Assembly: GCA_050732935.1 (NCBI GenBank)
Contig: JBOHRW010000217.1
Location: 398-64,397 of the forward strand
DNA from: Gemmatimonadota bacterium
Lineage (GTDB): Bacteria > Gemmatimonadota > Gemmatimonadetes > JACCXV01 > JAHWKZ01
Direction of reading: 5' to 3'
DNA: 64,000 nt
In this document: piece after piece, positions 35,979 to 51,950 of the stretch
How the letters are laid out: each line of letters opens with the position of its first letter
Position numbering within the stretch: the first letter of the stretch is position 1
Notes under the pieces: generated by a model
Seen by the model: the letters and a program-made list of their open reading frames with translations, nothing else
Told to the model about the DNA's origin: nothing
The model's database searches: none
Translations under genes and position numbers: made by a program

Positions 35979-36356
35979 ATGAGACGCTGGGTCGGTCGCT
36001 GGATCATCGGGGTCGGCATCATCCATGCTGGGGTCGGAGTCGTCATATTTCGAGAACGCCTGTTGGCGATCCTCCACGACGGTGTATGGAACGCCGTGGA
36101 CGGCCATCCTGGTCGACCGCTCGCGTTTTGGTTCGTATTCCTAGGTTTATTTACGATCGTGTTCGGGAGCCTCGTCGATTCGATGGAAAGCCGCGATCTT
36201 TCGCTTCCCCGCTTTGTGAGTTGGGCATTCTTCGTCTTGGTGGTTCTCGGAATCGTGACGATGCCCGTGGGCGGCGGATGGCTGCTCCTTCCGGCAGGGC
36301 TCGGTCTGGTCGTGCGTTCGTATCGACGAGGAACCAACGCCGCGCCCGCAGTCTAA
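35979..36356 (+). CDS. small hypothetical membrane protein (3-4 TM)
   Basis: GAGGAGG RBS. MRRWVGRWIIGVGIIHAGVGVVIF...LAFWFVFLGLFTIVFGSLV...WAFFVLVVLGIVTM. First gene of the low-GC island. Confidence 0.45.
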   Translation: MRRWVGRWIIGVGIIHAGVGVVIFRERLLAILHDGVWNAVDGHPGRPLAFWFVFLGLFTIVFGSLVDSMESRDLSLPRFVSWAFFVLVVLGIVTMPVGGGWLLLPAGLGLVVRSYRRGTNAAPAV

Positions 36357-36486
36357 CAACCGGTTGCAGCGGACGGTCCGCTCCGCGGCCCGCCGCTGAA
36401 CCGGAGCGTTAGGCCGATCAACTCCAAGGGTTGTCGGCTTCGCGCGATAGTTTCCTGCTTGGGCCTGAGATGCTAGGGGAGGGGAA

Positions 36487-37104
36487 GTGGCCGACAATCC
36501 GCCGTTCGTTACGGCCTACGGAAACATTACAAAGGCCCTGACCAAGATCCAGACAGCGGCTGTACCCCCTCGGTTTACGCAGGACTTCCTTGCCACAAAA
36601 CTGGACCTCAAAGGGGGATCGCCGAAACCGGTAATTCCTTTCCTTAAGCGGGTCGGGTTCTTGGGCACGGACGGGGTCCCTACCGAGTTGTACAAGCGGT
36701 TTCGGAACCCTAAGCAACGCGGACCGGCGGCGGCCGCCGCACTGAAGAAGGGGTACCGAACGCTTTACGAGATCAACGAGTACATCCACGAGGCGAAAGA
36801 TGATGAACTTAAGGGCGTCGTGGTTCAAATGACAGGTGGGGAGCCAGAGTCGAGCACCACAAAGGCAATCATCGGATCCTTCAAAGCGCTTCGGAAGTTC
36901 GCGGCCTTCGACGAGAACGAAGAGCCAGAAGAGCCGGAGGATGTTGAGGAGTCGGAAGAGGAATTGCCTGAAGGGCCCGATAACAAGATCACGACGACGA
37001 AACTTGGTTTGTCGTACGCGATCAATCTGAATCTTCCCGCAACCTCGGACGTAGCGGTGTTCGACGCAATCTTCAAGAGCCTGAAGGAGCACTTACTTAA
37101 GTGA
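36487..37104 (+). CDS. hypothetical protein, possibly DUF5343-like; upstream partner of a HEPN gene
   Basis: 205 aa. ...SPKPVIPFLKRVGFLGTDGVPTELYKRFRNPKQRGPAAAAALKKGYRTLYEIN resembles DUF5343 from memory (not verified). Acidic C-terminal tail. 4-nt GTGA overlap with the next gene. GC is about 52%, against about 69% for the flanks. Confidence 0.5.
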   Translation: MADNPPFVTAYGNITKALTKIQTAAVPPRFTQDFLATKLDLKGGSPKPVIPFLKRVGFLGTDGVPTELYKRFRNPKQRGPAAAAALKKGYRTLYEINEYIHEAKDDELKGVVVQMTGGEPESSTTKAIIGSFKALRKFAAFDENEEPEEPEDVEESEEELPEGPDNKITTTKLGLSYAINLNLPATSDVAVFDAIFKSLKEHLLK

Positions 37105-37700
37105 CCGATGACCACATGGCATTTCGTGACCGGCTCAAGCTCTTTGCAATGAACAATCAGTTACTTGAAAACGGCCTGGATGCGGTGGAGCAAGAGCATG
37201 CCATCGATCTCGGTCGAGGGCATCAGTGGACTGTGGGCCAGGACAAGGACTACTACCCACAACTTGACCAAGCGGTCCGCACGGAGGCGCGTGCAATGGC
37301 GCCGCACTACGAGATTTTCTACTCGCTCGAGAATTCGATTCGAAGTCTCATCTCGGAAACACTCGAAGTAGCCGAACCTGCGGGATGGTGGGAGAGCGGC
37401 CGCGTCCCGCCAACGATCAAAGCAGCCGCTGAGGAGACGCGAAGGCGAGAGATTGAATCTGGGATGACGCCACGGTCTGCAGAGCCCCTCGACTTCACGA
37501 CTTTCGGGCAGCTCGGGGAAATCATCAAAACCAACTGGGATGTCTTTGGGGGCATGTTCAACAGCCAGAGAGCCGTTGAGCGCGTAATGGCCAACTTGAA
37601 TACGCTTCGTGGTCCGATAGCTCACTGCAGCCCACTTGCTGAGGACGAAATCGTGAGGCTTCGTCTCAGTGTTCGAGACTGGTTCCGCTTAATGAGCTAA
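37101..37700 (+). CDS. HEPN-domain protein (Swt1-like HEPN, R-x4-H motif)
   Basis: C-terminal ...ANLNTLRGPIAHCSPLAEDEIVRLRLSVRDWFRL carries the R-x4-H HEPN signature followed by a conserved helix. 199 aa. Confidence 0.55.
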   Translation: MTDDHMAFRDRLKLFAMNNQLLENGLDAVEQEHAIDLGRGHQWTVGQDKDYYPQLDQAVRTEARAMAPHYEIFYSLENSIRSLISETLEVAEPAGWWESGRVPPTIKAAAEETRRREIESGMTPRSAEPLDFTTFGQLGEIIKTNWDVFGGMFNSQRAVERVMANLNTLRGPIAHCSPLAEDEIVRLRLSVRDWFRLMS

Positions 37701-37817
37701 TGGCCGGACGCTTACGGCCTAACTCGCTTCAGGAGCCGACCGAGGGCTCGCTGTCGCTCGGCACTCGGCGGGTCAGCAGCAAGATTCGTTGCGCCTTGCG
37801 ATCAGGAGGCACGTCGC

Positions 37818-39071
37818 ATGTTCAAGCTCGTCGATAGGCGCAAAGGCTACCTTTTCGCGAGCAGCGACCTACGCCAGATCATCGAGACTGCGCTCTCCAG
37901 AATGCATTTAGAGGTTGAAGGGCTTGAGGCCGATCGATTCTTGAACACGGCACCAGCAGATCTGGCCTCATACCTAGTCGAGAAGTCCACGATTACCGCA
38001 CCAGTCTTACTCCGAGAGCAGTGGACGGTCTCGGAGGCAGAGACAAAGGTAGACGTCCGCTACGACAGTCGCCGTTGGATCGATGACCGGTCTCGCCCAG
38101 TCTTGGTGCCCGGCCAACGGATTGAAATCGAGGTGCCCGTTGAAGGCTCCATCGACCTGTTGTATGCGCGGGCAAGCACCTTCAGTTCTTCCCCGCCGCG
38201 CGCTGAAATACGAGGGAACGCCGTCGTTCTTGTCTTTGAGATCCCACACGACAGTGGTGACCGAGACATCAAGCAACAGGCAGAGCGAACTCTAAATGAG
38301 ATCGAGCAACATCTCACCTGGATCCGGAACGATCTAGCGGGTTACAACTCCAGCCTTCCCGGCGCCGCCGACGCAGCCATCTCCGGCCGTCGGGAACGCC
38401 TCCTTGCGAATCGAGGTCGAGTCGCGGCTCTAGGCATCCCCCTTAAGCGACGCGAGAACGCCCCAGCTACGTATGCTCCACCAGAGGTGCGCCGCAAGGT
38501 ACTGTCTTCACCGCCACCTGCGAGTTCAGCGCCCTTCGCCCCGGAACCGGCGATGGACGGGCCCACCTACGAGCACATTCTGAACGTCATTCAGAACATG
38601 GCCCATGTTATGGAGCGCAGCCCAAGCGCGTTTCGGAATATGGCCGAGGAGGATATACGCCAGCACTTTCTGGTACAGCTCAACGGTCAGTTCGAAGGCA
38701 GCGCCACCGGAGAGACTTTCAACGTCTCAGGCAAGACAGACATTCTCCTGCGTGTGAACGGGCGCAACGTCTTTATCGGCGAATGCAAGTTCTGGAAGGG
38801 ACCGAAGCAATTCGGCGAGACTATCGGCCAACTGCTTTCCTATACCGCATGGCGCGACACAAAGACCGCGATTCTCGTCTTCAATCGGGACACCTCTCTC
38901 AGCACGGTCCTCGGCGGTGTTGACGCAGAGGTCAAGAAGCACGAGCAGTTCAAGCGGATCGTTCAATGGTCGCATGAGTCCGGATTCCGGTACGTGCTTC
39001 ATCAGACAAACGACTCCAACCGGGAACTGGTCTTGACCGTACTTGTGTTCGATGTGCCTAAGCCAGAGTAG
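37818..39071 (+). CDS. hypothetical protein with C-terminal PD-(D/E)xK (restriction-endonuclease-fold) nuclease-like domain
   Basis: 417 aa. C-terminus ...FNVSGKTDILLRVNGRNVFIGECKFWKGPKQF shows the D...(E)CK core triad spacing of PD-(D/E)xK nucleases. The N-terminal 300 aa is unrecognised. Confidence 0.5.
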   Translation: MFKLVDRRKGYLFASSDLRQIIETALSRMHLEVEGLEADRFLNTAPADLASYLVEKSTITAPVLLREQWTVSEAETKVDVRYDSRRWIDDRSRPVLVPGQRIEIEVPVEGSIDLLYARASTFSSSPPRAEIRGNAVVLVFEIPHDSGDRDIKQQAERTLNEIEQHLTWIRNDLAGYNSSLPGAADAAISGRRERLLANRGRVAALGIPLKRRENAPATYAPPEVRRKVLSSPPPASSAPFAPEPAMDGPTYEHILNVIQNMAHVMERSPSAFRNMAEEDIRQHFLVQLNGQFEGSATGETFNVSGKTDILLRVNGRNVFIGECKFWKGPKQFGETIGQLLSYTAWRDTKTAILVFNRDTSLSTVLGGVDAEVKKHEQFKRIVQWSHESGFRYVLHQTNDSNRELVLTVLVFDVPKPE

Positions 39072-39145
39072 TCTGAACCGAGCGAGGCCCTGATCCTAGT
39101 TAGAACGCCTCGTTTGCCGCAGGGGCGGGGCGACCGCAGAATGGG

Positions 39146-39772
39146 ATGAGGCAAGGCATGCAAAGGATCGAAATTGAGATTCCCGTTATTCGGCCTGGCG
39201 GAACGATGTTTCGGGTCGACAGCGACTGGCAGCACAACGCTGTAATCCAGACCTATCATCCCTCGTGGTACGTCTACGCCCACGCTTATCGCATGGGTGC
39301 CGATCGCCTAGTTGCCTCGGCCATGCAGGACCGCCGTGACATAGACTATCTCGTCTTCCCCATTGCTTTTATGTACCGGCAGTATCTCGAGCTTGGTCTA
39401 AAGGCGCTGATCCTTGATGCGGAGGAGTTGGCCAACACCTCATCGGCGGATCCCTACGGACACCGCCTGGACGTGCTATGGAACCGCTGCGAGCGGGCAT
39501 TGCTAAATCTGGAGAATCCACCATCTCTCGTGGAACGAGACGTGATCGGGAAATCTATCGATCAGTTCGGCACCATAGACGCGTCTTCGGTGGCGTTTCG
39601 GTATCCAGTTACGAAGGACGGTCATCCAGTACAACTCCCGACGACGCATATCAATCTCCGCGTACTCCGGGACGAGATGAAGAACGTCGGGAATGTCATC
39701 GAGTCCCTTTTGAACGGCCTGAGCGCCATGGTTGACCTAAAGCGTGAGTTCGAGGGTGAATGCGGGATGTAA
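39146..39772 (+). CDS. hypothetical protein (alpha-helical, about 190-208 aa)
   Basis: Clean ORF in the island, with an alternative start at MFRVDSD (39206). No recognisable family. Confidence 0.4.
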   Translation: MRQGMQRIEIEIPVIRPGGTMFRVDSDWQHNAVIQTYHPSWYVYAHAYRMGADRLVASAMQDRRDIDYLVFPIAFMYRQYLELGLKALILDAEELANTSSADPYGHRLDVLWNRCERALLNLENPPSLVERDVIGKSIDQFGTIDASSVAFRYPVTKDGHPVQLPTTHINLRVLRDEMKNVGNVIESLLNGLSAMVDLKREFEGECGM

Positions 39773-40151
39773 CCTCGCCGTTCAGACCGCGGCGGCCGCA
39801 TGCGGAGCCCGGTGTTCTAATGTGAGGAGGACGGACTCGAGTGCCCGTCCCTGTCGCGCGGGCAGAAAACTTGCTGCAACGGCCTCGAAGCAAGAAGGCT
39901 TCGAGCTCAGTGTTGAGGCGACACAAGGCGAACGAGACTCGAATCTCGTTGAAGGTCAGACTTTCCGCGGTCTCGACAATGTCACAGCAAGGGTGTCATA
40001 GAGGTCACGACCCGCCGTCTAACGAGTGAATGGACCTGACGGTGCGGCTGGCTCCTCAACCGGGAATGTTTGACATGGGGGAGGGCGTCGGTGATTTGAG
40101 AGGAACTCAGGTGGCCGCGCGGCAGGCGATTCGTGAATCCGTTAGGCGATC

Positions 40152-40850
40152 ATGGGAGAAGAGATGGCTCGTAGGAAGGTGACCGTCATTCCGAATCAGG
40201 TTTTTGTGGGCCTGCCCTGGCGAAACGTGCGCCCTCGGTACGAGAAGTGCATCGACAAGCTCGAGCAAAGGTACCCTCTGCATTTCACCATCGTGGGTCG
40301 AAAGGACGCACAGGACGCCGAGGACCTGCTCCAGGTCATCACCGCTCGTATCGACGCGTCGAGCTATGCTATCTTTGATGCCACTGGCGGGAATGCTAAC
40401 GTGTCGCTTGAGTACGGATACGCCGAAGCTGTAAACCTTCCGCGTGCCCTGTACCTCAGCACCCACAAGGCCGCCGGGGGAGGCAGCAGAGGTACGATCA
40501 TCTCTGATCTTGGCGGTAAGCGACGTGTGGAGTATAAGAATGAGCAGAGTCTTCGGACCCGCCTCGACACCTTCTGCAAGGATCACGATTACACGAAGCG
40601 CTTCGAATCCTTCTTGCAGAAGCGCGTCCGTCCGACGAAGCCCGGAGAGAAGAAGAGACAGCGGACGCTCGCACTGAAGTTGATACACCACCTGGACGAC
40701 AAAGCAAAATTACGACGAGCCGATATAGCGCAATCACTCCAAGCAAGTGGCTACTCCGAGAAGGAGATCTCCGATATGCTGACCAAATTGCACAAAGAAG
40801 GACTACTGAACGTAAGTCGCGGGCGGTTCTCGGACGTGCGGGTCGCGTAA
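40152..40850 (+). CDS. hypothetical protein: N-terminal nucleoside-2-deoxyribosyltransferase/SLOG(TIR-like) Rossmannoid domain + C-terminal winged-HTH
   Basis: KVTVIPNQVFVGLPWRN...SSYAIFDATGGNANVSLEYGYAEAVNLP resembles the D.T..N.NV..E.GyA motif of NDT/SLOG-like domains. C-terminus ...EKEISDMLTKLHKEGLLNVSRGRFSDVRV is wHTH-like. Confidence 0.5.
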   Translation: MGEEMARRKVTVIPNQVFVGLPWRNVRPRYEKCIDKLEQRYPLHFTIVGRKDAQDAEDLLQVITARIDASSYAIFDATGGNANVSLEYGYAEAVNLPRALYLSTHKAAGGGSRGTIISDLGGKRRVEYKNEQSLRTRLDTFCKDHDYTKRFESFLQKRVRPTKPGEKKRQRTLALKLIHHLDDKAKLRRADIAQSLQASGYSEKEISDMLTKLHKEGLLNVSRGRFSDVRVA

Positions 40851-40944
40851 CACGACCTACAGCGGATCGGCTACATTGGCCGTTAATCGCCGAACTGTTG
40901 GACACTACGCCAAATCCGAAATCCCCGCCGGGGACCAGGACCTC

Positions 40945-43050
40945 ATGAACCACAGCCAGATAGTCAGCTTCATCTGGGGTGTCGCGGATCTCATCCGCGA
41001 CACCTTCAAACGCGGCAAGTACCAGGACGTGATCCTCCCGCTCACCGTGCTGCGGCGGCTCGACTGCGTGCTGGCTCCCAACAAGTCGAAGGTCCTAGAG
41101 GTCCAGGCTAAGTACAAGGGCAAGATCGAGAACCTCGACCAGCTGCTCCGGCGCGCCTCGGGCTTCGCCTTCTACAACACCTCCCGCTACGACTTCGAGA
41201 AGCTCCTGGGCGACGCGCCGCACATCGCGCAGAACCTCCGCAACTACATCGCCAGCTTCAGCCCCAACATGCGGGAAGTACTTGAGAAATTCGACTTCAA
41301 CAACACCATCAGCAAGCTCGACGAGGCGGGACTGCTCTTCCTTGTCGTGCAGAAATTCGGCGAGGTGAATCTCCACCCGGACGTCATCGACAACCCGACG
41401 ATGGGCACCATCTTCGAGGAGCTGATCCGCAAGTTCAACGAGGCCTTGAACGAGAACCCGGGCGAGCACTTCACTCCTCGCGACGTGGTCCACCTGATGG
41501 TGGATCTTCTGATCGCAGGAGACGAGCAACGGCTACGCAAAAAGGGCGTGATCCTAACGGTATACGATCCGTGCTGCGGCTCGGGAGGGATGCTGACGAT
41601 CACGAAGGAGCACATCAAGGCAGGCGAGTGGTGCGGGCGAGACCTCCGGAAGCCGCCCGTAAACCCGGGGGCTGACGTCCATCTCTTCGGGCAGGAAGTG
41701 AACCCAGAGACCTGGGCGGTCAGCAAGTCCGATCTCTACATGAAATCGGTCGACGGCCGCGACGCGGAGAATATCGCGTACGGGAGCACCCTCTCGAACG
41801 ATCGTCATGCGGGCACGGCCTTCGACTACCTGATCGCCAACCCGCCCTACGGCAAGGACTGGAAACGCGACGAGGTCGCCGTACGGGCCGAGCATGAGCG
41901 GGGCGCCGCGGGACGCTTTGCCCCAGGGCTCCCACGGATCAGCGACGGCCAGCTCCTGTTCCTCCTGCACATGCTGGCGCACATGAAGGAGCCCAAGCAG
42001 GGCGGTTCGCGCGTCGCCATCATCATGAACGGCTCTCCGCTCTTCACCGGAGACGCCGGGAGCGGCGAGAGCGAGATCCGCCGCTGGATCCTCGAGAACG
42101 ACCGCCTCGAGGCGCTGATCGCGCTTCCCGAGCAGCTCTTCTACAACACGGGGATCGCCACGTATGTCTGGGTGCTCACCAACCGGAAGCCTCCCGAGCG
42201 GCGCGGCAAGGTCCAACTCATCGACGCCACCCGCTTCTGGACTTTGCTCCGAAAGAGCCTAGGGGCCAAACGGAGGGAGATCCCATTTGAGAAGAAGGAG
42301 GACATCCTCGCGCTGCTCCAGAACTTCGCGGACGGCGAGACCCGCAAGATCGCGGAGGACGGCGAGGAGCGCGAGCTCGTGGTGAGCCGGATCTATCGCA
42401 CGACCCACTTCGGCTTCCGCAAGATCACGGTCGAGCGACCGCTCAAGCTGGACTTCCAGGCGACGCCCGAACGGATCGCGCGACTCGATGAGGAACGCCC
42501 CTTCAAGAATCTCGCCGTCTCGCGCAAGAAAGGGGCGGCCAAGGCCAAGGAGGAGGAGGAAGGGCGCGCCCAGCAAGCCGCCATTCGCGAGCTCCTGGCG
42601 AACCTTCCGGGCGAACTCTACCTGGATCGAACCGAGTTCGAGGCGGTCCTCGGGAAGGCGGCCCGGAAGGCCAACCTGAAGCTCGCCGCTCCGATCAAGA
42701 GGACCATTCTCTCGGCACTCTCCGAGCGCAACGAGAGCGCCGAGATCTGCCGCGACAAGGACGGAAATCCGGAGTCCGACACTGAGCTTCGGGACACCGA
42801 GAGCGTTCCCCTCTCCGAGAGCGTTGAGGCCTTTTTCGAGCGCGAGGTAAGGCCCCACGTCCAGGACGCGTGGATCGACATCAGCCGGCGCGACCCGCAG
42901 GACGGAGAAGTCGGCATCGTGGGTTACGAGATCAACTTTAACCGCTACTTCTACGAGTACCGCCCACCGCGGTCGCTGGAGGAGATCGAGGCCGACATCC
43001 AGCACGTGGAGAGAGAGATCGTCTCGATGCTGCGGGAGGTCGCGGGGTAG
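40945..43050 (+). CDS. hsdM: type I restriction-modification system, DNA methyltransferase subunit M (long form)
   Basis: HsdM N-terminal domain, FTPRDVVHLMVDLL, VYDPCCGSGGML, LIANPPYGKDW (NPPY). Confidence 0.9.
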   Translation: MNHSQIVSFIWGVADLIRDTFKRGKYQDVILPLTVLRRLDCVLAPNKSKVLEVQAKYKGKIENLDQLLRRASGFAFYNTSRYDFEKLLGDAPHIAQNLRNYIASFSPNMREVLEKFDFNNTISKLDEAGLLFLVVQKFGEVNLHPDVIDNPTMGTIFEELIRKFNEALNENPGEHFTPRDVVHLMVDLLIAGDEQRLRKKGVILTVYDPCCGSGGMLTITKEHIKAGEWCGRDLRKPPVNPGADVHLFGQEVNPETWAVSKSDLYMKSVDGRDAENIAYGSTLSNDRHAGTAFDYLIANPPYGKDWKRDEVAVRAEHERGAAGRFAPGLPRISDGQLLFLLHMLAHMKEPKQGGSRVAIIMNGSPLFTGDAGSGESEIRRWILENDRLEALIALPEQLFYNTGIATYVWVLTNRKPPERRGKVQLIDATRFWTLLRKSLGAKRREIPFEKKEDILALLQNFADGETRKIAEDGEERELVVSRIYRTTHFGFRKITVERPLKLDFQATPERIARLDEERPFKNLAVSRKKGAAKAKEEEEGRAQQAAIRELLANLPGELYLDRTEFEAVLGKAARKANLKLAAPIKRTILSALSERNESAEICRDKDGNPESDTELRDTESVPLSESVEAFFEREVRPHVQDAWIDISRRDPQDGEVGIVGYEINFNRYFYEYRPPRSLEEIEADIQHVEREIVSMLREVAG

Positions 43051-43177
43051 CTCGTACCGAAACCTCTGCACCACCAGCGCCGGTGTCTGCGTGTGTTCCC
43101 CCTCCACGGGTCCGTGCCAGTGGACACAAAATGTAGGGGATTGCGCCTAACCCCCGACGCTTTGTATCATCCACCCC

Positions 43178-43774
43178 GTGAACAAGCGGGATCAAGCCCT
43201 GGCGATCATCGAGGAAAGGGGCCTCGTCCGCCCAAAAGAGCTCGAGGCCCGGGGTGTGTCGCGCGCGCTGCTCTATCGTCTGGTTCGCGAGGGGCTCGTC
43301 GAGAGGCAGACGCGGGGCGTGTACGCTCTGGCGCGCCACACACCTACAGCGGAGCATACACTAGCGCAGGTGGCGAAGCGCGTTCCGGCGGGCGTGTTCT
43401 GCCTACTCACCGCTCTACGCTTCCACGGCCTCACCACCCAGGCGCCCGCCGAGGTGTGGATCGCGCTACCCGAGAAGGCGCGGATCCCCCGACTCGACTA
43501 CCCCCGGCTGCGGGTCGCGCGCTTCTCGGGGGCCTCGCTCACGGAAGGGGTCGAGACGCACCAGGTCGAGGGCGTCGAGGTGCGCGTCTACTCGCCGGCG
43601 AAGACCGTGGCCGACTGTTTCAAGTACCGCAAGAAGATCGGCATCGATGTGGCCGTCGAGGCGCTTCGCGACTTCACCCGACTGTATCGCGGGGGCGCGA
43701 CCGATCTGGCTCGGTTCGCTCGCATCTGCCGGGTCACCCGCGTGATGCAGCCCTACCTGGACGCCATCGCATGA
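43178..43774 (+). CDS. abiEi: AbiEi-family antitoxin (type IV TA, N-terminal wHTH)
   Basis: GTG start. MNKRDQALAIIEERGLVRPKELEARGVSRALLYRLVREGLVERQTRGVYAL is an AbiEi_4-like N-terminus. 4-nt ATGA overlap with the following NTase gene. Confidence 0.75.
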   Translation: MNKRDQALAIIEERGLVRPKELEARGVSRALLYRLVREGLVERQTRGVYALARHTPTAEHTLAQVAKRVPAGVFCLLTALRFHGLTTQAPAEVWIALPEKARIPRLDYPRLRVARFSGASLTEGVETHQVEGVEVRVYSPAKTVADCFKYRKKIGIDVAVEALRDFTRLYRGGATDLARFARICRVTRVMQPYLDAIA

Positions 43775-44724
43775 ATCCCACCAAGCGGAACATCGCCGCT
43801 TCGGTCGCTGCGCGCCTGCTCAACGAGGCCCGACGTACTGGTGACGATTACCAGACCCTGCTCACAGCGTACGCGTTCGAGCGGTTCCTGTACCGCTTGG
43901 GCCTCTGCGAACTGCGCGATCGTTTCGTGCTCAAGGGCGCCATGCTCCTCCGCCTGTGGTCGGACAATCCGTACCGTGCAACCCGCGACCTGGACCTCCT
44001 GCGGACAGGCGACGGATCGTTTGATGCCATCCGGGCAGACCTCCGGACCATCTGCACGGTTCCGGTGGACCCCGACGGCATCGCCTTCGAAGTCGATTCC
44101 ATTCGTGTCGAGGCTATTCGGGCCGAGGACGAGTTTGCCGGTACCCGCGCGACGCTGCTTGCGCGTTGTGGCTCCGCGCGCTTGTCCCTGCAGGTGGACA
44201 TGGGCCTCGGCGATGCCGTTTGGCCGCCTCCCCAGCCCATCGTCTATCCCTCGCTGCTCGACTTTCCGGCACCCGAGGTGCTTGCGTACCCGCGCGAGGC
44301 GGTCGTGGCGGAGAAGCTGGAGGCGCTGGTGGTCCTCGGCGACCGCAACAGCCGGATCAAGGATTTCTTCGACCTGCACCACCTCGCGAACCACTTCGCC
44401 TTCGATCGAGGGACGTTGGCCGATGCTGTGCGTCGAACCTTTGCCAGACGCGCCACACCCATTCCGGCCGAAGCGCCGATTGGTCTCACTCGCGCATACT
44501 GGGAGAACCCCTCACGCCCAGCTCAGGTGCGCGCCTTCGCTCGGCGTTCAGGTCTAGAGATACCGGAGGACCCCGGTCACGAGCTGGCAGACCTCGTCGG
44601 CGCGTTCCTCCTGCCGATACTGGACGATCTCCGACGGGGCGCCGAGGAGACTGGATCGTGGGCTGCCGGGGGACCCTGGCGGCTGATCACGCATGCCAGG
44701 CAAGAAAGCCAAGCCGATGTCTGA
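43771..44724 (+). CDS. abiEii: AbiEii/AbiGii-family nucleotidyltransferase toxin (DUF1814)
   Basis: FVLKGAMLLRLWSDNPYRATRDLDLL (NTase motif of DUF1814). 318 aa. Lies directly after abiEi. Confidence 0.75.
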   Translation: MNPTKRNIAASVAARLLNEARRTGDDYQTLLTAYAFERFLYRLGLCELRDRFVLKGAMLLRLWSDNPYRATRDLDLLRTGDGSFDAIRADLRTICTVPVDPDGIAFEVDSIRVEAIRAEDEFAGTRATLLARCGSARLSLQVDMGLGDAVWPPPQPIVYPSLLDFPAPEVLAYPREAVVAEKLEALVVLGDRNSRIKDFFDLHHLANHFAFDRGTLADAVRRTFARRATPIPAEAPIGLTRAYWENPSRPAQVRAFARRSGLEIPEDPGHELADLVGAFLLPILDDLRRGAEETGSWAAGGPWRLITHARQESQADV

Positions 44725-46054
44725 GGCGCTCGCGCAGATCAGGGGGGCGCGACCCCGGCGCTACCGTCCGTACACGAGGTGCAAAGATTCCGGCGTCGAT
44801 TGGCTTGGGCAGATCCCGGTGCATTGGGAAGTGAAGCGGCTCAAGTTTATTGCGCCAGCAACCATGGGTAAGGTAGACGTCAAGCCGGATGACGCGGTCT
44901 ATATCGGCCTCGAGCATGTCGAGTCATGGACGGGTCGCCTGCTACTCGATAACCAACCCGATGTCGTAGACAGCGTCGTGACATCGTTCAAGGCAGGCGA
45001 CGTGCTCTTCGGTAAACTTCGTCCCTATCTGGCTAAGGCGGCTCGACCAGACTTTGACGGAGTCTGTACAAGCGAGATTCTACCGCTTCGGCCGGCAGCC
45101 CGGTGCTCTCAAAGCTACTTGATGTACTGCCTTCTGAGTGCACCGCACATTCGGTTCCTCGACTCCCTTACCTATGGCACCAAGATGCCGCGACTCAGCC
45201 CCGCGCAGATCGGAAACAGCTTCGTGCCAGTTCCCCCCCTTGAGGAGCAGCACGCTGTTGCCGGTATCCTCGACCGCGAAACATCTAGGATCGACGGGCT
45301 CGTGGCGAGGAAGGAGCGGCTGATCGAGCTGCTCCAGGAGAAGCGGACTGCCCTCATCACCCACGCCGTCACCCGCGGCCTCGACCCGAGCGTCCAGCTT
45401 ATGGACTCCGGCATTGAGTGGGTGGGGGAGATTCCGGAGCATTGGGAGGTAAGCCGCATCAAATGGGTTGCTCGGATGGAAAGCGGGCATACACCGGACA
45501 AGAAGATCGAAGCTTACTGGCGTGATGGAGATGTGCCGTGGCTCTCACTCAATGACACTGGATTCCTGAAGGATCACGACTACATATCTGAGACGGCTCA
45601 CTATACGAATGAGCTGGGGCTGAGGAATTCCTCCGCGCGCCTCCTTCCTGCGGGAGCCGTAGTCTTCTCGCGCGACGCAACGATCGGACTGTGCGCGATT
45701 ACTGAACGGCCAATCGCGGTATCGCAGCACTTTATTGCCTGGCTATGCGGGGGGAGGCTTCTGCCGGAGTACCTGCTGCGAGTCTTTGATGCAATGCAGG
45801 GTGAGCTTGAGAGGCTAACGATGGGCGCGACTCTACGAACGATTGGAATGCCTCATGTAAAGGAGCTAGCAACTCCAATCCCGCCCGTGTCAGAGCAAGA
45901 GCAGATCGTCGCTGTCATCCGCACCGAAACCGCCAAGATCGATGCCCTCATCGTCAAGGTCCGCAAAGCCATCGACCTTCTCAAGGAGTTCCGCACCGCC
46001 CTGATTTCCGCAGCCGTCACAGGCAAGATCGACGTCCGCGATGGGGTACCGTGA
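44693..46054 (+). CDS. hsdS: type I restriction-modification system specificity subunit S (two target-recognition domains)
   Basis: Two TRD halves, each followed by a conserved coiled-coil region ([39 protein letters not shown]...; [38 protein letters not shown]). Confidence 0.85.
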
Positions 46055-47097
46055 CCTTCTCCCCGCGCTTCTCGATCTCCAACGCCAGCGCCGAAGCGCT
46101 GACGCAAATCGAGCGGGCGCGGGGGTTTCTCGAGGCAGCGAGGCTCTCGGAGGATTGGCTCGCCTCCATGCGCTCGCGCGCCTTCGTCCTCGAAGCTCAC
46201 CACACGACCCACATCGAGGGGACCCGGCTGACCCTCGAGCAGTCCGAGCAGCTCCTCGCGGGCCATGAGGTGCCGGAAACCGATCCAGAGGATGCGCGCG
46301 AGCTCCTCAACTACCGTGAGGCCTTCGAGTTCGTGAGCGACTGGCTCAAGGATGGCGAGGCCATCACGGAGGGTCTGATCCGAGAGATCCACAGACGTCT
46401 TGTCGCCGGCGTACGTGGGGGGTCGGCGGCTCCCGGAGAGTATCGCCGCGTGCAGAACTACATCGTGAACATGGCCGCGGGCGAGACGGTCTACGAGCCG
46501 CCTCCCGCCCACGACGTACCGATCCTGATGCGGGAGCTGGTCACCTGGCTGAACGATCCGGGTCAGGTCCACCCGGTGCTTGCCAGCGGGATGGCGCAGT
46601 TCCAGCTCGTCCACATCCATCCGTTCCTCGATGGAAATGGCCGGACTTCGCGGCTCCTCTCCACGATCTGTCTCTATCGAAGCGGCTACGACTTCAAACG
46701 GCTCTTCACGATCAGCGAGTACTACGACCGCGATCGCGCCGCGTTCTATCGCGCTCTCCAGGGCGTGCGAGAGGCCGGCATGGATCTGACAGGCTGGCTC
46801 GACTTCTATACCCAGGGGCAGGCCACGCAGCTCGACGAGGTCAAGGCGCTTGGCGAGCGTGCGATTCGGCGGGACGTGCTCGTCCGCGAGCATGGGCTCT
46901 CGGAGCGCCAAGGGCTAGCCCTTGGGCACGTGATGGAGAACGGGTCGCTGACGATCAAGGACTACGAGGCGCTCTGTCCGGGCGTCAGCCGGCGTACTTT
47001 GCAGAGAGATTTGAAAGGGCTTGTGCAACGGGCTCTCTTGAAGACCAAGGGCGCCACAGACCGTCTTCAATACGTTGGAGGCAAGTCACTTACGTGA
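46051..47097 (+). CDS. fic: Fic/DOC-family protein (AMPylator-like)
   Basis: [16 protein letters not shown] (HPFx[D/E]GNGR). GTGA overlap with the hsdS stop. Confidence 0.85.
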
Positions 47098-47155
47098 ACT
47101 TGCGACAAACTTGCGGCAGAACTTGCGACAGACTCGCGACGGGACTTGCGACATG
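47098..47155 (+). repeat. tandem direct repeat array, five copies of ACTTGCGACA with 11-12 bp period, filling the fic-hsdR intergenic space and ending on the hsdR ATG
   Basis: acttgcgacaa / acttgcggcaga / acttgcgacag / actcgcgacggg / acttgcgacATG. Confidence 0.7.
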
Positions 47156-50100
47156 ACCCAAAGAGTCTCAGAGCGCGCCTTTGAGGAGGCGATCGAGTGC
47201 GCCCTCCTCGAGCACGGGCCCGACGCCTGTCCAGGCGACGCCACGGCGGTCCGGGAGCCACCGCCGACCTTCGACGGCGATCCTCTGCCGGGGGGCTACC
47301 GGAAGCAAAGGCCCGAGTACTACGACCGCGCGCTCTGCCTGATCACGAAGGACGTGATCGACTTCCTCCTGGCCACCCAGCCGAAAGAGTGGGAGAGGCT
47401 CCGCCAGCATCACGGTTCGGAGGTTAAGGACCGCTTTCTGTCGCGCCTCTCGCGCGAGATCGGCCGGCGGGGCGCGCTCGATGTTCTGCGGAACGGCGTC
47501 AAGGACTCGGGCTGCAAGTTCCGCCTGGCGTTCTTCCGCCCAGCGAGCGGCCTGAACGAGGAGACGCGGCGGCTCTACGCCGCCAACCTCTTCTCGATCG
47601 TCCGTCAGCTCCGCTACAGCGAGCGGGGAGAACCGAGCCTCGACCTCGTGCTCTTCCTGAACGGGATCCCCCTCTTCACGGCCGAGCTCAAGAACCCGCT
47701 GTCGGGCCAGGACGTCGAGGACGCGATCCGGCAGTACCGGACCGATCGCGACCCGCGCGAGCCGCTCTTCGCCTACGGCCGCTGCCTCGCCCACTTCGCG
47801 GTGGATCCGGAGCTGGTCTTCGTGACCACCCATCTCCGGGGATCCGCGACCCGCTTCCTGCCCTTCAACCAGGGGCGCTTCGGCGGCGCCGGAAATCCCC
47901 CCGTGCCGCCGACACGAAAAGGGTACGCGACCGCGTACCTCTGGGAGCGGACCTGGGCGCGTGACAGCGTCCTCGACCTCGTCCGCCAGTTCATCCACGA
48001 GGTCGAGGAGGAGGACAAGCGCTCGCTGATCTTCCCGCGCTACCAGCAGCTGGACTGCGTCCGTCGGCTCGTGCGTCACGCCCGGAATCACGGCACCGGG
48101 CAGCGCTACCTGATCCAGCACTCGGCCGGGAGCGGGAAGAGCTTCACGATCGCCTGGCTCGCTCACCAGCTCTCGACCCTCCACGACGCCGAGGACCGGC
48201 GCGTCTTCGACTCGATCGTGGTGGTGACGGACCGCCTGGTCCTCGACCGCCAGCTCCAGCGGACGGTGCGCCAGTTCGAGCAGACCCTGGGGGTGGTCGA
48301 GAACATCGACCAGACCTCGCGCCAGCTCAAGGAGGCCCTGGAGTCGGGCCGGACGATCATCGTGACGACACTACAGAAGTTCCCGGTGATCGCCGAGCAG
48401 ATCGAGCAGCTCCGGGGCCAGCGCTTCGCAGTGGTCCTGGACGAGGCGCACTCCTCGCAGACTGGGGAGAGCTCGAAGAGCCTGAAGCAGGCGCTGACCG
48501 CCGGCAGCCTCGAGGAGGCGGAAGCGGAGGAGGCCGGTGCCGGGACGCCCGAGGAGGAGATCGAGGACGCGGTTCACGAGGAGATCCGAAGGCGCGGGCC
48601 CCAGCCCAACCTCTCGACCTTCGCGTTCACGGCGACCCCCAAGCCGAAGACCCTGGAGCTCTTCGGCCGCAAGCGCCCGGACGGGCAGTTCGAGCCCTTC
48701 CATCTCTACTCGATGCGTCAGGCCATCGAGGAGGGCTTCATTCTGGACGTCCTCGCGAACTACACCACCTATAAGACCTATTGGCGGCTCCTCAAGAAGA
48801 TCGAGGACGACCCCCGCTACGACCGGCGGAAGGCCCAGTACCTGCTCAAGTCGTTCGTCGACCTCCATCCCCACGCCATCCAGGAGAAGATCCGCATCAT
48901 GGTGGATCATTTCGCCGGAAAGGTGCAGGGGGAGATCAGCGGGAGGGCCAAGGCGATGATCGTGACGCGGTCTCGGCTCCACGCGGTTCGCTACAAGCGG
49001 GCGCTGGACCGCTATCTGAAGGAGAAGGGCCACATGTGGAAGAGCCTGGTGGCGTTCTCGGGGACGGTCGAGGACGGGGGGAAGAGATACACGGAATCGG
49101 GCATGAACTCCGCCGGCGAGGATCACGTGATCGGCGAGCGCCAGACGGCCCTCGAGTTCGGAAAACCCGAGTGCCGGTTCCTGGTGGTCGCTAACAAGTT
49201 CCAGACGGGCTTCGACCAGCCGCTCCTCCACACGATGTACGTGGACAAGAAGCTGGGCGGGGTGAACGCGGTCCAGACCCTCTCGCGCCTCAACCGGACG
49301 CACCCGGGCAAGACGGGCACCATGGTGCTCGACGTCGCCAACGAGGCCGAGGAGATCCGGAAGGCCTTCGAGCCGTACTACGAGACGACGCTGCTGTCCG
49401 AGGAGACGGATCCGAACCTGCTCTACGAGGTCCAGGGGCGGCTCCTGGGGTTCGGCGTGTACACCGAGGTCGATGTCGCGGCGTTTGCGCGGGTGTACTT
49501 CGACTCTAAGACCACCCAGGACCAGATCTACGCGGCGCTGGAGTCGATCCGCGAGCGGTTCGGAGAGATCACCCCGGAGGAACAGGCCGGCTTCTGGGGC
49601 CAGGTCACCGACTACGTCCGGCTCTACGCCTTTCTTTCCCAGGTCCTGACCTTCGCCGACCCTGACCTCGAGAAGCTCTACGTCTTCGCCCGTTATCTCC
49701 GGCGGCTCCTGCCGGCCGACCCTGAGGAACTCCCCCGTGAGGTGCAGCAGAACATCGACATGGAGTCCTACCGCATCCAGGAGATGAGCCGCGGCAGGAT
49801 CAAGCTCGAACGCCAGGCCGGGAAGCTGGGTCCCATGCGCAGCAAGCCGGGCCACGGGCGCGGGGAGGAAGAACTCGAGCCCCTTTCCCAGATCATCGCC
49901 GAGCTGAACGAGCGGTTTGGGCTGAACCTCGGGCCCGAGCACCGCATCGCCCTGGAGCGGATTCGCGATGCTCTTGACGAGGACGCCGGCCTCGACGCCA
50001 GTGCGCGGGTCAACACGCGGGAGAACGTGCGTCTCACGTTCGACCCCAAGGTCGAAGACAAGATCCAGGAGATCGTCGACACCAACTTCGAGCTCTACAA

Positions 50101-50719
50101 GCGGATCACCGACGACCAGGCCTTCGGCCGGGCGCTCAAGAACCTCCTCTTCGACGACTACATCCGCCGCCATCGTCGTGTGGAGGAGTTGCTGAAGCTC
50201 CAGGAGTCCAAGACGCTGGAGTTCAAGTCGAGCCTGCGCTGGAACCTGAAGGAGGACTGCAAGGACGACCGCCACGTCACCCACGCGGCCCTCAAGACGA
50301 TCGCCGCCTTTCTGAACACTGAGGGCGGTGACCTCGTGATCGGTGTGGCCGATGACCGCACCGTCGTTGGCATCGAGCCCGACCGGCTCGAGAACGACGA
50401 CAAGTTCATGCGCCACCTGGCCCAGGTGGTCAGGAACGGTCTCGGGGTTCGCGCCGGGACCTGCATCGATCCCAAGACTCAGATCGTGGATGGGAAGACG
50501 GTCTGCCTGGTGAGCTGTCAGCGGAGCCCGGAGCCTGTATTCCTGAAGTGGAAGGGGCTGGAGAAGTCCAAGAGCGGGGACCTCTTCGTGCGCAGCGGCC
50601 CCAGCACAATCCCGCTGGAAGGCGATGACGTCGAGGAGTTCATCACTACGAGATTTCGTGCGACGGTCGGGCCAGGCGCAGGGATAGCACCAGTTGACGA
50701 ACCTCGGACACCAGCATAG
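47153..50719 (+). CDS. hsdR: type I restriction enzyme R subunit with C-terminal AlbA_2 (Schlafen-like) domain
   Basis: HsdR N-terminal nuclease and SF2 helicase motifs (QHSAGSGKSFT, DEAHSSQ, ...). The C-terminal 170 aa, ESKTLEFKSSL...HAALKTIAAFLNTEGGDLVIGVADDRTVVGI, matches the AlbA_2 core. Confidence 0.9.
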   Translation: MTQRVSERAFEEAIECALLEHGPDACPGDATAVREPPPTFDGDPLPGGYRKQRPEYYDRALCLITKDVIDFLLATQPKEWERLRQHHGSEVKDRFLSRLSREIGRRGALDVLRNGVKDSGCKFRLAFFRPASGLNEETRRLYAANLFSIVRQLRYSERGEPSLDLVLFLNGIPLFTAELKNPLSGQDVEDAIRQYRTDRDPREPLFAYGRCLAHFAVDPELVFVTTHLRGSATRFLPFNQGRFGGAGNPPVPPTRKGYATAYLWERTWARDSVLDLVRQFIHEVEEEDKRSLIFPRYQQLDCVRRLVRHARNHGTGQRYLIQHSAGSGKSFTIAWLAHQLSTLHDAEDRRVFDSIVVVTDRLVLDRQLQRTVRQFEQTLGVVENIDQTSRQLKEALESGRTIIVTTLQKFPVIAEQIEQLRGQRFAVVLDEAHSSQTGESSKSLKQALTAGSLEEAEAEEAGAGTPEEEIEDAVHEEIRRRGPQPNLSTFAFTATPKPKTLELFGRKRPDGQFEPFHLYSMRQAIEEGFILDVLANYTTYKTYWRLLKKIEDDPRYDRRKAQYLLKSFVDLHPHAIQEKIRIMVDHFAGKVQGEISGRAKAMIVTRSRLHAVRYKRALDRYLKEKGHMWKSLVAFSGTVEDGGKRYTESGMNSAGEDHVIGERQTALEFGKPECRFLVVANKFQTGFDQPLLHTMYVDKKLGGVNAVQTLSRLNRTHPGKTGTMVLDVANEAEEIRKAFEPYYETTLLSEETDPNLLYEVQGRLLGFGVYTEVDVAAFARVYFDSKTTQDQIYAALESIRERFGEITPEEQAGFWGQVTDYVRLYAFLSQVLTFADPDLEKLYVFARYLRRLLPADPEELPREVQQNIDMESYRIQEMSRGRIKLERQAGKLGPMRSKPGHGRGEEELEPLSQIIAELNERFGLNLGPEHRIALERIRDALDEDAGLDASARVNTRENVRLTFDPKVEDKIQEIVDTNFELYKRITDDQAFGRALKNLLFDDYIRRHRRVEELLKLQESKTLEFKSSLRWNLKEDCKDDRHVTHAALKTIAAFLNTEGGDLVIGVADDRTVVGIEPDRLENDDKFMRHLAQVVRNGLGVRAGTCIDPKTQIVDGKTVCLVSCQRSPEPVFLKWKGLEKSKSGDLFVRSGPSTIPLEGDDVEEFITTRFRATVGPGAGIAPVDEPRTPA

Positions 50720-50728
50720 ACGGAGAGA

Positions 50729-51415
50729 ATGCCAAAACTACGCAGTCTCGAAGCCATCTTCCGAGAGCTCAACGCTGAAGGGATCCGCTACCTGGTGGCC
50801 GGGGGAGTCGCCGTCAACGTCCACGGCTATCAGCGAATGACACAGGACCTTGATCTCATCGTGGATCTCGCACGGGAGAACGTGCTGGGTGCCCTAAGGG
50901 CGCTTGGAAAGCTGGGGTACCGGCCGGTGTTACCGGTCGAGGCGGAGGATTTCGCGGATCCCGCAAAGCGGCGAGCTTGGGTGGAAACGAAGAATCTGCA
51001 GGTCTTCTCGCTGACCAGCGAGGAGCACCAGGACACGACCGTCGACCTGTTTGCAGGCGATCCCTTCTCAGGTCGGGACGAGTACGCCCGCGCCGTCCTG
51101 GTGGAGATTGCTCCTGCCCTCGAGGTGCCCTTCGTGCACTTGGCCACCCTCATCGCCATGAAGGAGGGGACGGGACGCGCCAGAGATTCGGATGACGTCG
51201 AGCACCTTCGTGAAATCCAGACGGATTTGGAAGCTGGACCGGACAGGGTCAGGGAGACGGGGGGCTGGGTAGCCGCCACCTGGGGGGGAAGCCGCCGCGA
51301 GCAACTGCGGAGAGCGCTTCGGCTGAGTGCATCCGAGCGGCTCGAGGGGCTGGAGGCCCTGACGGAGACGAGCGAGCGGCTGAAAGGAATCGCCAGGCCG
51401 GATGGCGGCCCATGA
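50729..51415 (+). CDS. minimal nucleotidyltransferase-fold protein, paralog c
   Basis: IRYLVAGGVAVNVHGYQRMTQDLDLIVD. 228 aa. Begins 10 nt after hsdR stop. 14-nt overlap with the downstream deaminase gene. Confidence 0.55.
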   Translation: MPKLRSLEAIFRELNAEGIRYLVAGGVAVNVHGYQRMTQDLDLIVDLARENVLGALRALGKLGYRPVLPVEAEDFADPAKRRAWVETKNLQVFSLTSEEHQDTTVDLFAGDPFSGRDEYARAVLVEIAPALEVPFVHLATLIAMKEGTGRARDSDDVEHLREIQTDLEAGPDRVRETGGWVAATWGGSRREQLRRALRLSASERLEGLEALTETSERLKGIARPDGGP

Positions 51416-51950
51416 AACCGTCGGGAGGGCCGTGACCAGCAGCGCTCAACATCGTGAACGGCTACGGGAGCTCGTCGAATTCACGGCGTCCTCGTTGGAC
51501 ACCGACTTCCCCTCACCGTTCGGATCCGCGGTCTACGACGAGCGAAGTGGCGGACTGATAGCTCAGGCCTACGACACCGTCATCGAAGCGCGCGACCCCA
51601 CGAACCACGCGGAGATCAACGCCATTCGCGAAGCCACGAAGAAGCTCCGATCGCTGTCGCTTCGGGGATGCATCCTGTACAGCACCTGCGAACCATGCCC
51701 CATGTGCATGTCCGCCAGCATCTGGGCCGAGATCGATACGGTGGTCTTCGGCGCGTCGACATTGGAAGACGCCGATCGGTACTGGCCGCAGGCATCGGAC
51801 ATGTCACCGCTCGATCTCGTGGCCCGCATGCGCCGGGAGCCGCGATGCGGGCTCGTACCTCACGTCGAACGCCGCCTCTGTCAGGACCTCTTCCGGCGAT
51901 GCGACGAGGCGCGAAGGGAACGCGGCCTGGAGCTTCCTCCCCACCGCTGA
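51402..51950 (+). CDS. CMP/dCMP-type zinc deaminase (TadA/nucleoside deaminase-like)
   Basis: HAEINAIREA...CEPCPMC zinc-binding signature. Confidence 0.75.
   Translation: MAAHETVGRAVTSSAQHRERLRELVEFTASSLDTDFPSPFGSAVYDERSGGLIAQAYDTVIEARDPTNHAEINAIREATKKLRSLSLRGCILYSTCEPCPMCMSASIWAEIDTVVFGASTLEDADRYWPQASDMSPLDLVARMRREPRCGLVPHVERRLCQDLFRRCDEARRERGLELPPHR

Follow-up and report, generated by a model that had tools for sequence, protein, structure and literature searches.

PDC-S54, a catalogued phage defence candidate with a predicted C-terminal PD-(D/E)xK nuclease domain, in a defence island of a Gemmatimonadota bacterium

In the present study, a 64,000-nucleotide (nt) stretch of Gemmatimonadota DNA (contig JBOHRW010000217.1 of assembly GCA_050732935.1, positions 398 to 64,397; hereafter the window) was analysed with focus on a gene for a protein of 417 amino acids (aa) located upstream of a type I restriction-modification (R-M) operon. 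As judged from profile matching, this gene is a real member of PDC-S54, a large family of predicted phage defence genes that is already catalogued in PADLOC, and we consider it likely that the gene constitutes a self-contained, horizontally mobile, single-gene candidate anti-phage system. This interpretation is based on the family match, the single-gene unit, the nuclease features of the C-terminal domain, the contrast in conservation between the domains, and the mobility and defence context of the family. A previous sequence-only reading of the same DNA had regarded the protein as a putative nuclease of unknown family and a downstream open reading frame (ORF) of 208 aa as its partner.

Results

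Family assignment and distribution

The PADLOC model for PDC-S54 (PDLC05036) matched the 417-aa protein with an E-value of 1.2e-155 and 517 bits, residues 9-415 being aligned to positions 4-408 of the 410 positions of the profile, and no PADLOC model besides PDC-S54 matched at E-values up to 0.1. The family was thus not unknown: the protein had already been catalogued as a single-gene candidate. Since PDC-S54 was the sole PADLOC match, membership in Shedu and Hachiman is excluded, and since the protein matched the PDC-S54 model and showed none of the hallmarks of Shedu, Hachiman, Mrr or nucleotidyltransferases that were looked for, it was assigned to a known, predicted kind of defence gene. 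PDC stands for 'phage defence candidate', and the models were built by Payne, Hughes, Fineran & Jackson via a guilt-by-embedding approach, for which genes located within BREX, DISARM and type I R-M systems served as the source set (bioRxiv 10.1101/2024.01.29.577857). Mobilome, known-defence and housekeeping functions were filtered out, 145 single- or multi-gene candidates remained, and these entered PADLOC as predictions, without testing (bioRxiv 10.1101/2024.01.29.577857).

The coordinates of the gene and of the features discussed below are given in Table 1. The gene is preceded by a Shine-Dalgarno sequence, and its ATG is backed by the alignment of homologues, most of which open with MFxLxxKxxGYLF at the same position. 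Moreover, a 100% identical sequence is present in GenBank as a hypothetical protein of a Gemmatimonadota metagenome-assembled genome (MAG), and a homology search scored 8,000 candidates, of which more than 5,600 were significant and many were 60-84% identical over the full length; the ORF proposed by the sequence-only reading is therefore confirmed. No family of Pfam, NCBIfam or PHROGs matched the protein above threshold, the one PHROGs match being phrog_9664 (function unknown, E 9e-5), and comparison with the PDB sequences, using either the single sequence or profiles of 40 and 132 sequences, returned coiled-coil and chance matches only.

An exhaustive HMMER search of representatives clustered at 50% identity yielded 4,254 matches, 1,473 of which were below 1e-30. 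The architecture of about 410 aa was kept in all of the best 150 cluster representatives, with an end-to-end alignment in almost all of them, and a Pfam scan (E up to 0.01) of six longer PDC-S54 members detected no fusion to a known domain. In a survey comprising one genome per species, relatives were found in 266 of 185,579 species genomes. Bacterial members come from Beta- and Gammaproteobacteria, Chlorobi, Zixibacteria, Planctomycetota, Bacteroidota, Cyanobacteria, Chloroflexota, Desulfobacteria and Nitrospira, and archaeal members from Promethearchaeota and Bathyarchaeia. Additionally, PDC-S54 is carried by 23 plasmids (six of them conjugative; haloarchaeal, Streptomyces and Spiroplasma plasmids are included) and by two phage records. 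The product name was 'hypothetical protein' in every annotated record examined, i.e., the 23 plasmids, one phage genome, the GenBank MAG and the JGI entries; the second phage record carries no annotation. Such a patchy distribution across phyla is as would be expected for a horizontally mobile accessory gene.

Table 1. Features of the PDC-S54 locus in the window (positions are those of the 64,000-nt window).
Feature	Position	Strand	Basis or remark
Low-GC3 block, DUF6463 gene to 232-aa ORF	35979..40850	+	Per-gene GC3, composition profile, domain scans
Shine-Dalgarno sequence AGGAGG	37805..37810	+	Sequence reading; 7 nt before the ATG of the 417-aa gene
417-aa gene, PADLOC PDC-S54 member	37818..39071	+	ORF list and PADLOC match
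N-terminal domain, aa 1-204	37818..38429	+	AlphaFold, pLDDT mostly 84-95
Linker, aa 205-245, Pro/Arg/Lys-rich	38430..38552	+	pLDDT below 50 at residues 206-244
C-terminal domain, aa 246-417, predicted RecB/HsdR-type PD-(D/E)xK nuclease	38553..39068	+	AlphaFold, weak Foldseek and hhalign matches
Predicted catalytic motif GKTDILLRVNGRNVFIGECKFWKG, aa 305-328	38730..38801	+	Translation, conservation, strands of the models
Q338-x-x-x-Y342 motif in the helix after the ExK strand	38829..38843	+	Conservation; HsdR alignment of Q338
208-aa ORF, orphan gene, weakly HEPN-like	39146..39772	+	ORF list; alternative start Met21 at nt 39206
232-aa ORF	40152..40850	+	Ends 25 nt before hsdM
Type I R-M operon	40876-50719	+	hsdM, AbiEi/AbiEii, hsdS, Fic, hsdR

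Domain organization of the PDC-S54 protein

An AlphaFold model of the full-length protein, computed from a 40-sequence alignment with a mean predicted local distance difference test (pLDDT) score of 79.6, divides it into an N-terminal domain, a linker and a C-terminal domain. When the C-terminal domain was modelled separately (pLDDT 86, predicted template modelling score 0.84), the order of secondary structure elements was helix, strand, strand, strand, helix, strand, i.e., the alpha-beta-beta-beta-alpha-beta order of the PD-(D/E)xK core. The motif quoted by the sequence-only reading, GKTDILLRVNGRNVFIGECKFWKG, was located within this domain. Its D308 is positioned on the second core strand, namely at the start of strand E306-313 in the full-length model and just before strand E64-68 in the domain-only model, E322-C-K324 lies on the third core strand, and Q338xxxY342 on the next helix. 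In an alignment of 132 sequences that are 35-56% identical to the 417-aa protein, D308, Q338, D347 and E277, a residue of the helix upstream of D308, were conserved in 100% of the sequences, E322 and Y342 in 99%, and K324 in 96%. The conservation of D308, E322 and K324 across these sequences argues that the D...ExK motif is under selection and did not arise by chance. QxxxY in combination with D...ExK is the signature of the RecB family of nucleases, which includes the nuclease domain of the type I R-M subunit HsdR.

The relation to HsdR was assessed with hhalign, using an N-terminal profile (HsdR_N) built from the HsdR of the window and those 98 of the 120 homologues listed that were at least 150 aa long. 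The C-terminal domain matched this profile with P of 0.004-0.017 and with the motifs in register: D308, E322, K324 and Q338 were paired with the D, E, K and Q of 'DLVLFLNGIPLFTAELK...AIRQ' in the HsdR of the window. In a column-shuffle control, two of 150 shuffled profiles attained the observed score. Furthermore, when eleven proteins of the window served as single-sequence hhalign targets, HsdR_N scored highest (P 0.005), and the two AbiEii nucleotidyltransferases of the window reached P of 0.2-0.3. Sub-threshold Pfam matches were present in eight of 40 PDC-S54 members and comprised HSDR_N (four members), Mrr_cat (three, best E 0.03) and McrBC (one), all of which are PD-(D/E)xK families. At the level of structure, Foldseek searches of the full-length and domain-only models against the PDB, and of the full-length model against BFVD, gave nothing at E < 1e-3. 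Weak PDB matches to nucleases were obtained for McrC (6ut7_G, probability 0.85; 7vsr_M, probability 0.77), OkrAI (3odh, query template modelling (TM) score 0.44), the restriction-endonuclease-like protein 3ijm and EcoT38I, and the nuclease alignments of the domain-only model had root-mean-square deviations (RMSD) of 5.6-8.1 Å and query TM scores of 0.32-0.44. Hidden Markov models of the PDC-S54 domains gave no cross-matches to other nucleases when run against all ORFs of the window and of 84 loci. Taken all together, the C-terminal domain is probably a PD-(D/E)xK nuclease. This agrees with the core that the sequence-only reading had suspected: structure prediction, named there as a check, returned the restriction-endonuclease-like order in a confident model with near-invariant D, ExK and QxxxY residues, accompanied by an in-register but weak HsdR match and weak Foldseek matches.

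The N-terminal domain is predicted to consist of three helices, a beta-sheet region and a helix of 54 residues (aa 151-204). No Pfam, PDB-sequence or attributable Foldseek match was found for it, and an hhalign comparison of the N- and C-terminal domains of the protein revealed no similarity and hence no internal duplication. The claim that the first 300 aa lack a recognisable domain thus holds insofar as no domain was detected; the extent of this region is about 200 aa, since the nuclease-like domain begins near residue 246. Mean column conservation was 0.34-0.39 in the N-terminal domain, 0.48 in the linker and 0.72 in the nuclease core. From this alignment we infer a fast-evolving N-terminal module joined to a conserved effector, as would be expected of an immune sensor-effector protein, and the faster evolution of the N-terminal domain than of the nuclease domain fits the sensor function put forward by the sequence-only reading, the sensing itself being putative. 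The linker is predicted to be disordered and yet is better conserved than the folded N-terminal domain, with G206, I207, P208, R212, P222, P233, E243 and P244 being invariant in the homologue alignment. These invariant residues, together with a conservation above that of the folded N-terminal domain, suggest that the linker engages in a functional interaction and is not simply a passive tether.

PDC-S54 as a single-gene unit

The 208-aa ORF described downstream of the 417-aa gene by the sequence-only reading is present on the same strand after a gap of 74 nt; another gene caller starts it at Met21, which results in a protein of 188 aa and a gap of 134 nt. Its role as a partner was not supported by the comparison of loci. 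A tblastn search with the 208-aa protein in 83 loci carrying a homologue of the 417-aa gene found a relative in none of them, and the gene for an 84%-identical homologue is followed by a VapB/PIN (VapBC) pair without a 208-aa relative. Conversely, P0122, a relative with 45% identity to the 208-aa protein, lies in a locus (L004) with unrelated neighbours and no PDC-S54 gene. The 208-aa ORF was thus ruled out as a partner or antitoxin on the basis of co-occurrence. All-against-all clustering of the ORFs across the 83 PDC-S54 loci showed that a conserved neighbour is lacking on both flanks; the largest non-overlapping cluster of neighbours was present in eight loci, on both sides and at a distance of about 2.5 kb. 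Due to the lack of co-occurrence with the 208-aa ORF, the lack of a conserved neighbour and the heterogeneous flanks, PDC-S54 is regarded as a single-gene unit, the organization that its 'S' label in PADLOC implies.

The 208-aa protein had no Pfam match above threshold and no NCBIfam or PDB sequence match. Its family comprises only four matches in 5.8 billion proteins, as compared to the more than 5,600 of the 417-aa family, and one of the four is the same locus assembled from raw reads. Conserved motifs of the family are LVFPIxFLYRQYLEL, HxLxxLW and AFRYPVxK, and HEPN (PF05168) was detected below threshold in three of five members (E 0.12-0.16). On these sequence grounds, the 208-aa ORF appears to be an unrelated, rare orphan cargo gene of the same insertion, possibly HEPN-like. 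The relative P0122 is found near a Hypoth_Ymh gene, a gene for an Rce1-like protease and a HigB/helix-turn-helix (HTH) pair.

Genomic context

In the window, the 417-aa gene is part of a block of six consecutive genes with a G+C content at third codon positions (GC3) of 0.64-0.68, compared to 0.86-0.92 in the flanking hsdM, hsdR and radical-SAM genes. The block comprises the genes for DUF6463, DUF5343 (PDC-M34A), a Swt1-like HEPN protein (PDC-M34B) and PDC-S54 as well as the 208-aa and 232-aa ORFs, and its GC3 contrast with the flanking genes indicates a foreign insertion of roughly 5 kb. No tRNA, integrase, flanking repeats or Rfam family was found at the block edges, and a promoter and terminator scan around the block gave nothing above shuffle expectation. 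Directly upstream of PDC-S54, the overlapping genes for the 205-aa DUF5343 protein and the 199-aa Swt1-like HEPN protein (36487-37700, plus strand) match the two-gene PADLOC candidate PDC-M34 with E-values of 5e-48 and 5e-35. One further locus (L063, a Desulfobacteraceae MAG) likewise has a PDC-M34A/B pair, located some 3 kb upstream of its PDC-S54 gene.

In the R-M operon that follows the block, embedded AbiEi/AbiEii genes (43178-44724) separate hsdM from hsdS, and an embedded Fic/DOC gene (46051-47097) separates hsdS from hsdR. The HsdR of this operon is 1,214 aa long and carries a Schlafen/AlbA_2 domain in its C-terminal part (residues 1044-1181, E 8e-19). After hsdR, a second AbiEii-like nucleotidyltransferase gene (228 aa, E 2e-6) overlaps a gene for a 182-aa protein of the dCMP/cytidine deaminase family (E 1.5e-20), for which a MafB19-like deaminase was also matched; this pair at 50729-51950 (plus strand) may represent another defence or toxin module. 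The region around PDC-S54 is a defence island, and the defence context assumed by the sequence-only reading is borne out by its neighbours PDC-M34, type I R-M, AbiE and Fic.

Between the block's PDC-S54 gene and hsdM, the 232-aa ORF showed weak TIR-like and phrog_3634 matches at its N-terminus (residues 37-98; E 1e-3 and 4e-4) and a weak winged-helix match to Fe_dep_repress at its C-terminus (E 0.0035), and none of the 83 PDC-S54 loci yielded a relative of it. A function as a regulator or as a further defence cargo gene is conceivable. RptR was ruled out as its identity, since RptR is a four-helix protein of 79 aa. The 379-nt intergenic region between the 208-aa and 232-aa ORFs (39773-40151) contains short inverted repeats, e.g., GCAAGAAGGCTTCGA at 39890-39904; neither an Rfam match nor a predicted promoter or terminator was found there.

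Elsewhere, the immediate neighbours of PDC-S54 are heterogeneous and include Gabija GajA/OLD (four loci), GmrSD, HerA, Abi_C, NYN and HTH proteins and many housekeeping enzymes. On the Thauera plasmid pTX1, a homologue is flanked by an hsdS gene and a gene for a restriction endonuclease, with RelE/HigA nearby. In one homologue clade, PDC-S54 overlaps or abuts an upstream HNH_2 gene (L088, 6198-8248; L089, 6197-8251; L005, 5219-7242), and both are preceded by genes for an MmeI/Eco57I-like methylase of about 1,500 aa and an uncharacterised protein of about 665 aa; in L088, a GmrSD gene follows PDC-S54. The loci of this clade represent a different defence island with the same PDC-S54 cassette.

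Discussion

Here, a gene from a Gemmatimonadota defence island was assigned to the PDC-S54 family and a mode of action can be proposed. We propose that the N-terminal domain with its 54-residue helix would sense an infection cue or a DNA feature and/or drive oligomerisation, which is usual for PD-(D/E)xK enzymes, whereas the Pro/Arg-rich linker might serve as a tether, as an autoinhibitory segment or as an interaction segment in trans. The protein would stay inactive as long as its N-terminal module is not engaged; after engagement the nuclease, with E277, D308, E322 and K324 as putative metal-binding or catalytic residues in combination with Q338xxxY342, would cleave DNA, either that of the phage directly or indiscriminately, the latter leading to abortive infection. 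Between direct restriction of phage DNA, similar to the type IV behaviour of Mrr, and killing of the infected cell, the data favour neither.

Several points weigh against this interpretation. A literature search found no mention or experimental test of PDC-S54, and the family is not among the PDCs validated in a cold-seep study (PMC12881386). In the window the gene adjoins the R-M operon, two ORFs upstream of hsdM, and is not embedded in it, and some homologues stand among housekeeping genes without a defence or R-M neighbour. The roles in sensing and oligomerisation that we infer for the N-terminal domain and the linker are purely conjectural. With regard to the C-terminal domain, the 417-aa protein has no PDB sequence match to a known nuclease, and the nuclease matches lie below conventional significance (Foldseek E > 0.01, TM < 0.5, hhalign probability < 10%). 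Moreover, the lowest Foldseek E-values were those of the nucleotidyltransferase domains of TUT7, polymerase lambda/mu/beta and NF90 (E 0.005-0.2), which, as none of the nuclease matches is significant, would be in line with a polymerase-beta-like nucleotidyltransferase or another alpha/beta fold in which the D...ExK spacing is coincidental. This is nevertheless highly improbable: the top-ranked TUT7 alignments are poor (RMSD about 17 Å, query TM 0.17-0.26), the shorter alignments with polymerase beta/lambda (63-107 columns) reach query TM scores of only about 0.30-0.32, and the nucleotidyltransferase signature G[GS]...DxD/E is absent, GKTDILL holding D308 as its single acidic residue. By contrast, a PD-(D/E)xK core agrees with both the order of the strands and the location of D, ExK and QxxxY, and hhalign prefers HsdR_N over the two AbiEii nucleotidyltransferases of the window. 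A nuclease may, however, also act without sensing of infection or an abortive trigger, namely as a constitutive, modification-dependent type IV enzyme of the Mrr/McrC kind, the N-terminal domain of which binds modified phage DNA. Mrr_cat and McrBC among the sub-threshold Pfam matches, the McrC chains as the best nuclease matches in Foldseek, the Mrr-like layout in one polypeptide and the location of PDC-S54 beside GmrSD and R-M genes in some loci speak for such an enzyme. We regard it as unlikely, as Mrr_cat and the PADLOC type IV models did not match at threshold, the N-terminal domain contains no winged-helix, SRA or other known modified-DNA reader detectable by Pfam or Foldseek, and the QxxxY motif implies a core of the RecB/HsdR rather than the Mrr type.

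The occurrence of PDC-S54 on plasmids, conjugative ones included, and in phage records, with transposases or resolvases near some loci, and the copies among housekeeping genes might also be due to a non-immune role: RecB-type nuclease domains are common in recombination proteins, and a nuclease of a mobile element or of DNA metabolism, involved in plasmid or integrative and conjugative element maintenance, homing, recombination or repair, could hitch-hike in variable regions. However, integrase, transposase, relaxase and replication genes showed no conserved linkage to PDC-S54 in the 83 loci, R-M, Gabija, GmrSD and toxin-antitoxin genes recur next to it, and the pairing of a fast-evolving N-terminal domain with a conserved effector is characteristic of immune proteins. 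Additionally, Payne et al. had removed mobilome and non-defence functions from their set before PDC-S54 was selected. A non-immune role thus appears slightly less likely still than a constitutive type IV enzyme. The two-gene system suggested by the sequence-only reading, which would pair the 417-aa nuclease with the supposedly helical 208-aa protein in a sensor-effector, toxin-antitoxin or nuclease-regulator relationship, has the least to recommend it and is very improbable. The two genes share their strand, are separated by 74-134 nt with no predicted terminator in between, and have similar GC3 values (0.67 and 0.665); the latter, however, is unspecific for the pair, since all six genes of the block share it. 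Against a common function stand the absence of 208-aa relatives from every one of the 83 PDC-S54 loci, where no neighbour family is conserved and the 84%-identical homologue precedes VapBC instead, the P0122 locus without PDC-S54, and the unlike family sizes.

The preferred interpretation as a single-gene candidate system invites comparison with known systems. The protein resembles the PDC-S54 candidate of Payne et al. in its full-length model match, in being encoded by a single gene and in its association with a type I R-M system in the window; it differs in its position outside the operon, whereas the prediction was based on embedding within BREX, DISARM or type I R-M systems. With the nuclease domains of HsdR (HSDR_N) and RecB it shares the order and spacing of D...ExK...Q..Y and the predicted alpha-beta-beta-beta-alpha-beta core. 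However, the similarity is weak, the protein has no helicase or translocase motor, and its nuclease domain stands at the C-terminus, joined to an N-terminal domain that is unrelated.

Shedu (SduA) is a stand-alone defence gene coding for a DUF4263 nuclease with variable N-terminal domains in one polypeptide. The likeness to PDC-S54 concerns the layout only, i.e., a variable, non-catalytic N-terminal module and a conserved C-terminal PD-(D/E)xK nuclease: the Shedu models of PADLOC did not match, and DUF4263 was found neither in the 417-aa protein nor in 40 members at E up to 5. Hachiman also has a PD-(D/E)xK effector in a defence context, HamA (DUF1837), but this has the helicase HamB as a partner, whereas the 417-aa gene adjoins PDC-M34B and the 208-aa ORF, with no helicase and no HamA match. 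The remark of the sequence-only reading that the protein is reminiscent of Shedu or Hachiman without matching them is therefore accurate, the layout being like that of Shedu and neither PADLOC nor Pfam giving a match to either system. Mrr is a single protein as well, with a non-catalytic N-terminal domain and a C-terminal nuclease. Mrr_cat or McrBC was matched below threshold in four of 40 PDC-S54 members, and McrC gave the top structural matches among nucleases; no Mrr_cat match above the gathering threshold was obtained for the 417-aa protein, which has ExK and QxxxY where Mrr-type enzymes have QxK, and which lacks an McrB partner or GTPase and a recognisable DNA reader.

For the window itself, these results are mostly a clarification: what the region holds is a defence island with a catalogued candidate, not a novel two-gene system. 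The two-gene idea, from which the apparent unusualness of the locus arose, was wrong, and the family is already present in a public defence database (PADLOC). For the family, which comprises thousands of sequences from many bacterial phyla, archaea, plasmids and a few phage records and has neither a Pfam model nor a solved relative, the present analysis contributes a domain map, the candidate residues E277, D308, E322, K324, Q338 and Y342 and evidence for a single-gene organization, which make PDC-S54 directly testable. Tentatively, and with somewhat less than even confidence, PDC-S54 might represent a mechanistically new class of single-protein immune nucleases of bacteria and archaea, in which an N-terminal sensor fold without structural precedent and a disordered but conserved Pro/Arg-rich linker would gate a RecB/HsdR-type nuclease without a helicase motor or a nucleotide second messenger. 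If validated, PDC-S54 would be a widespread nuclease defence that is encoded by a single gene and whose sensing domain is uncharacterised.

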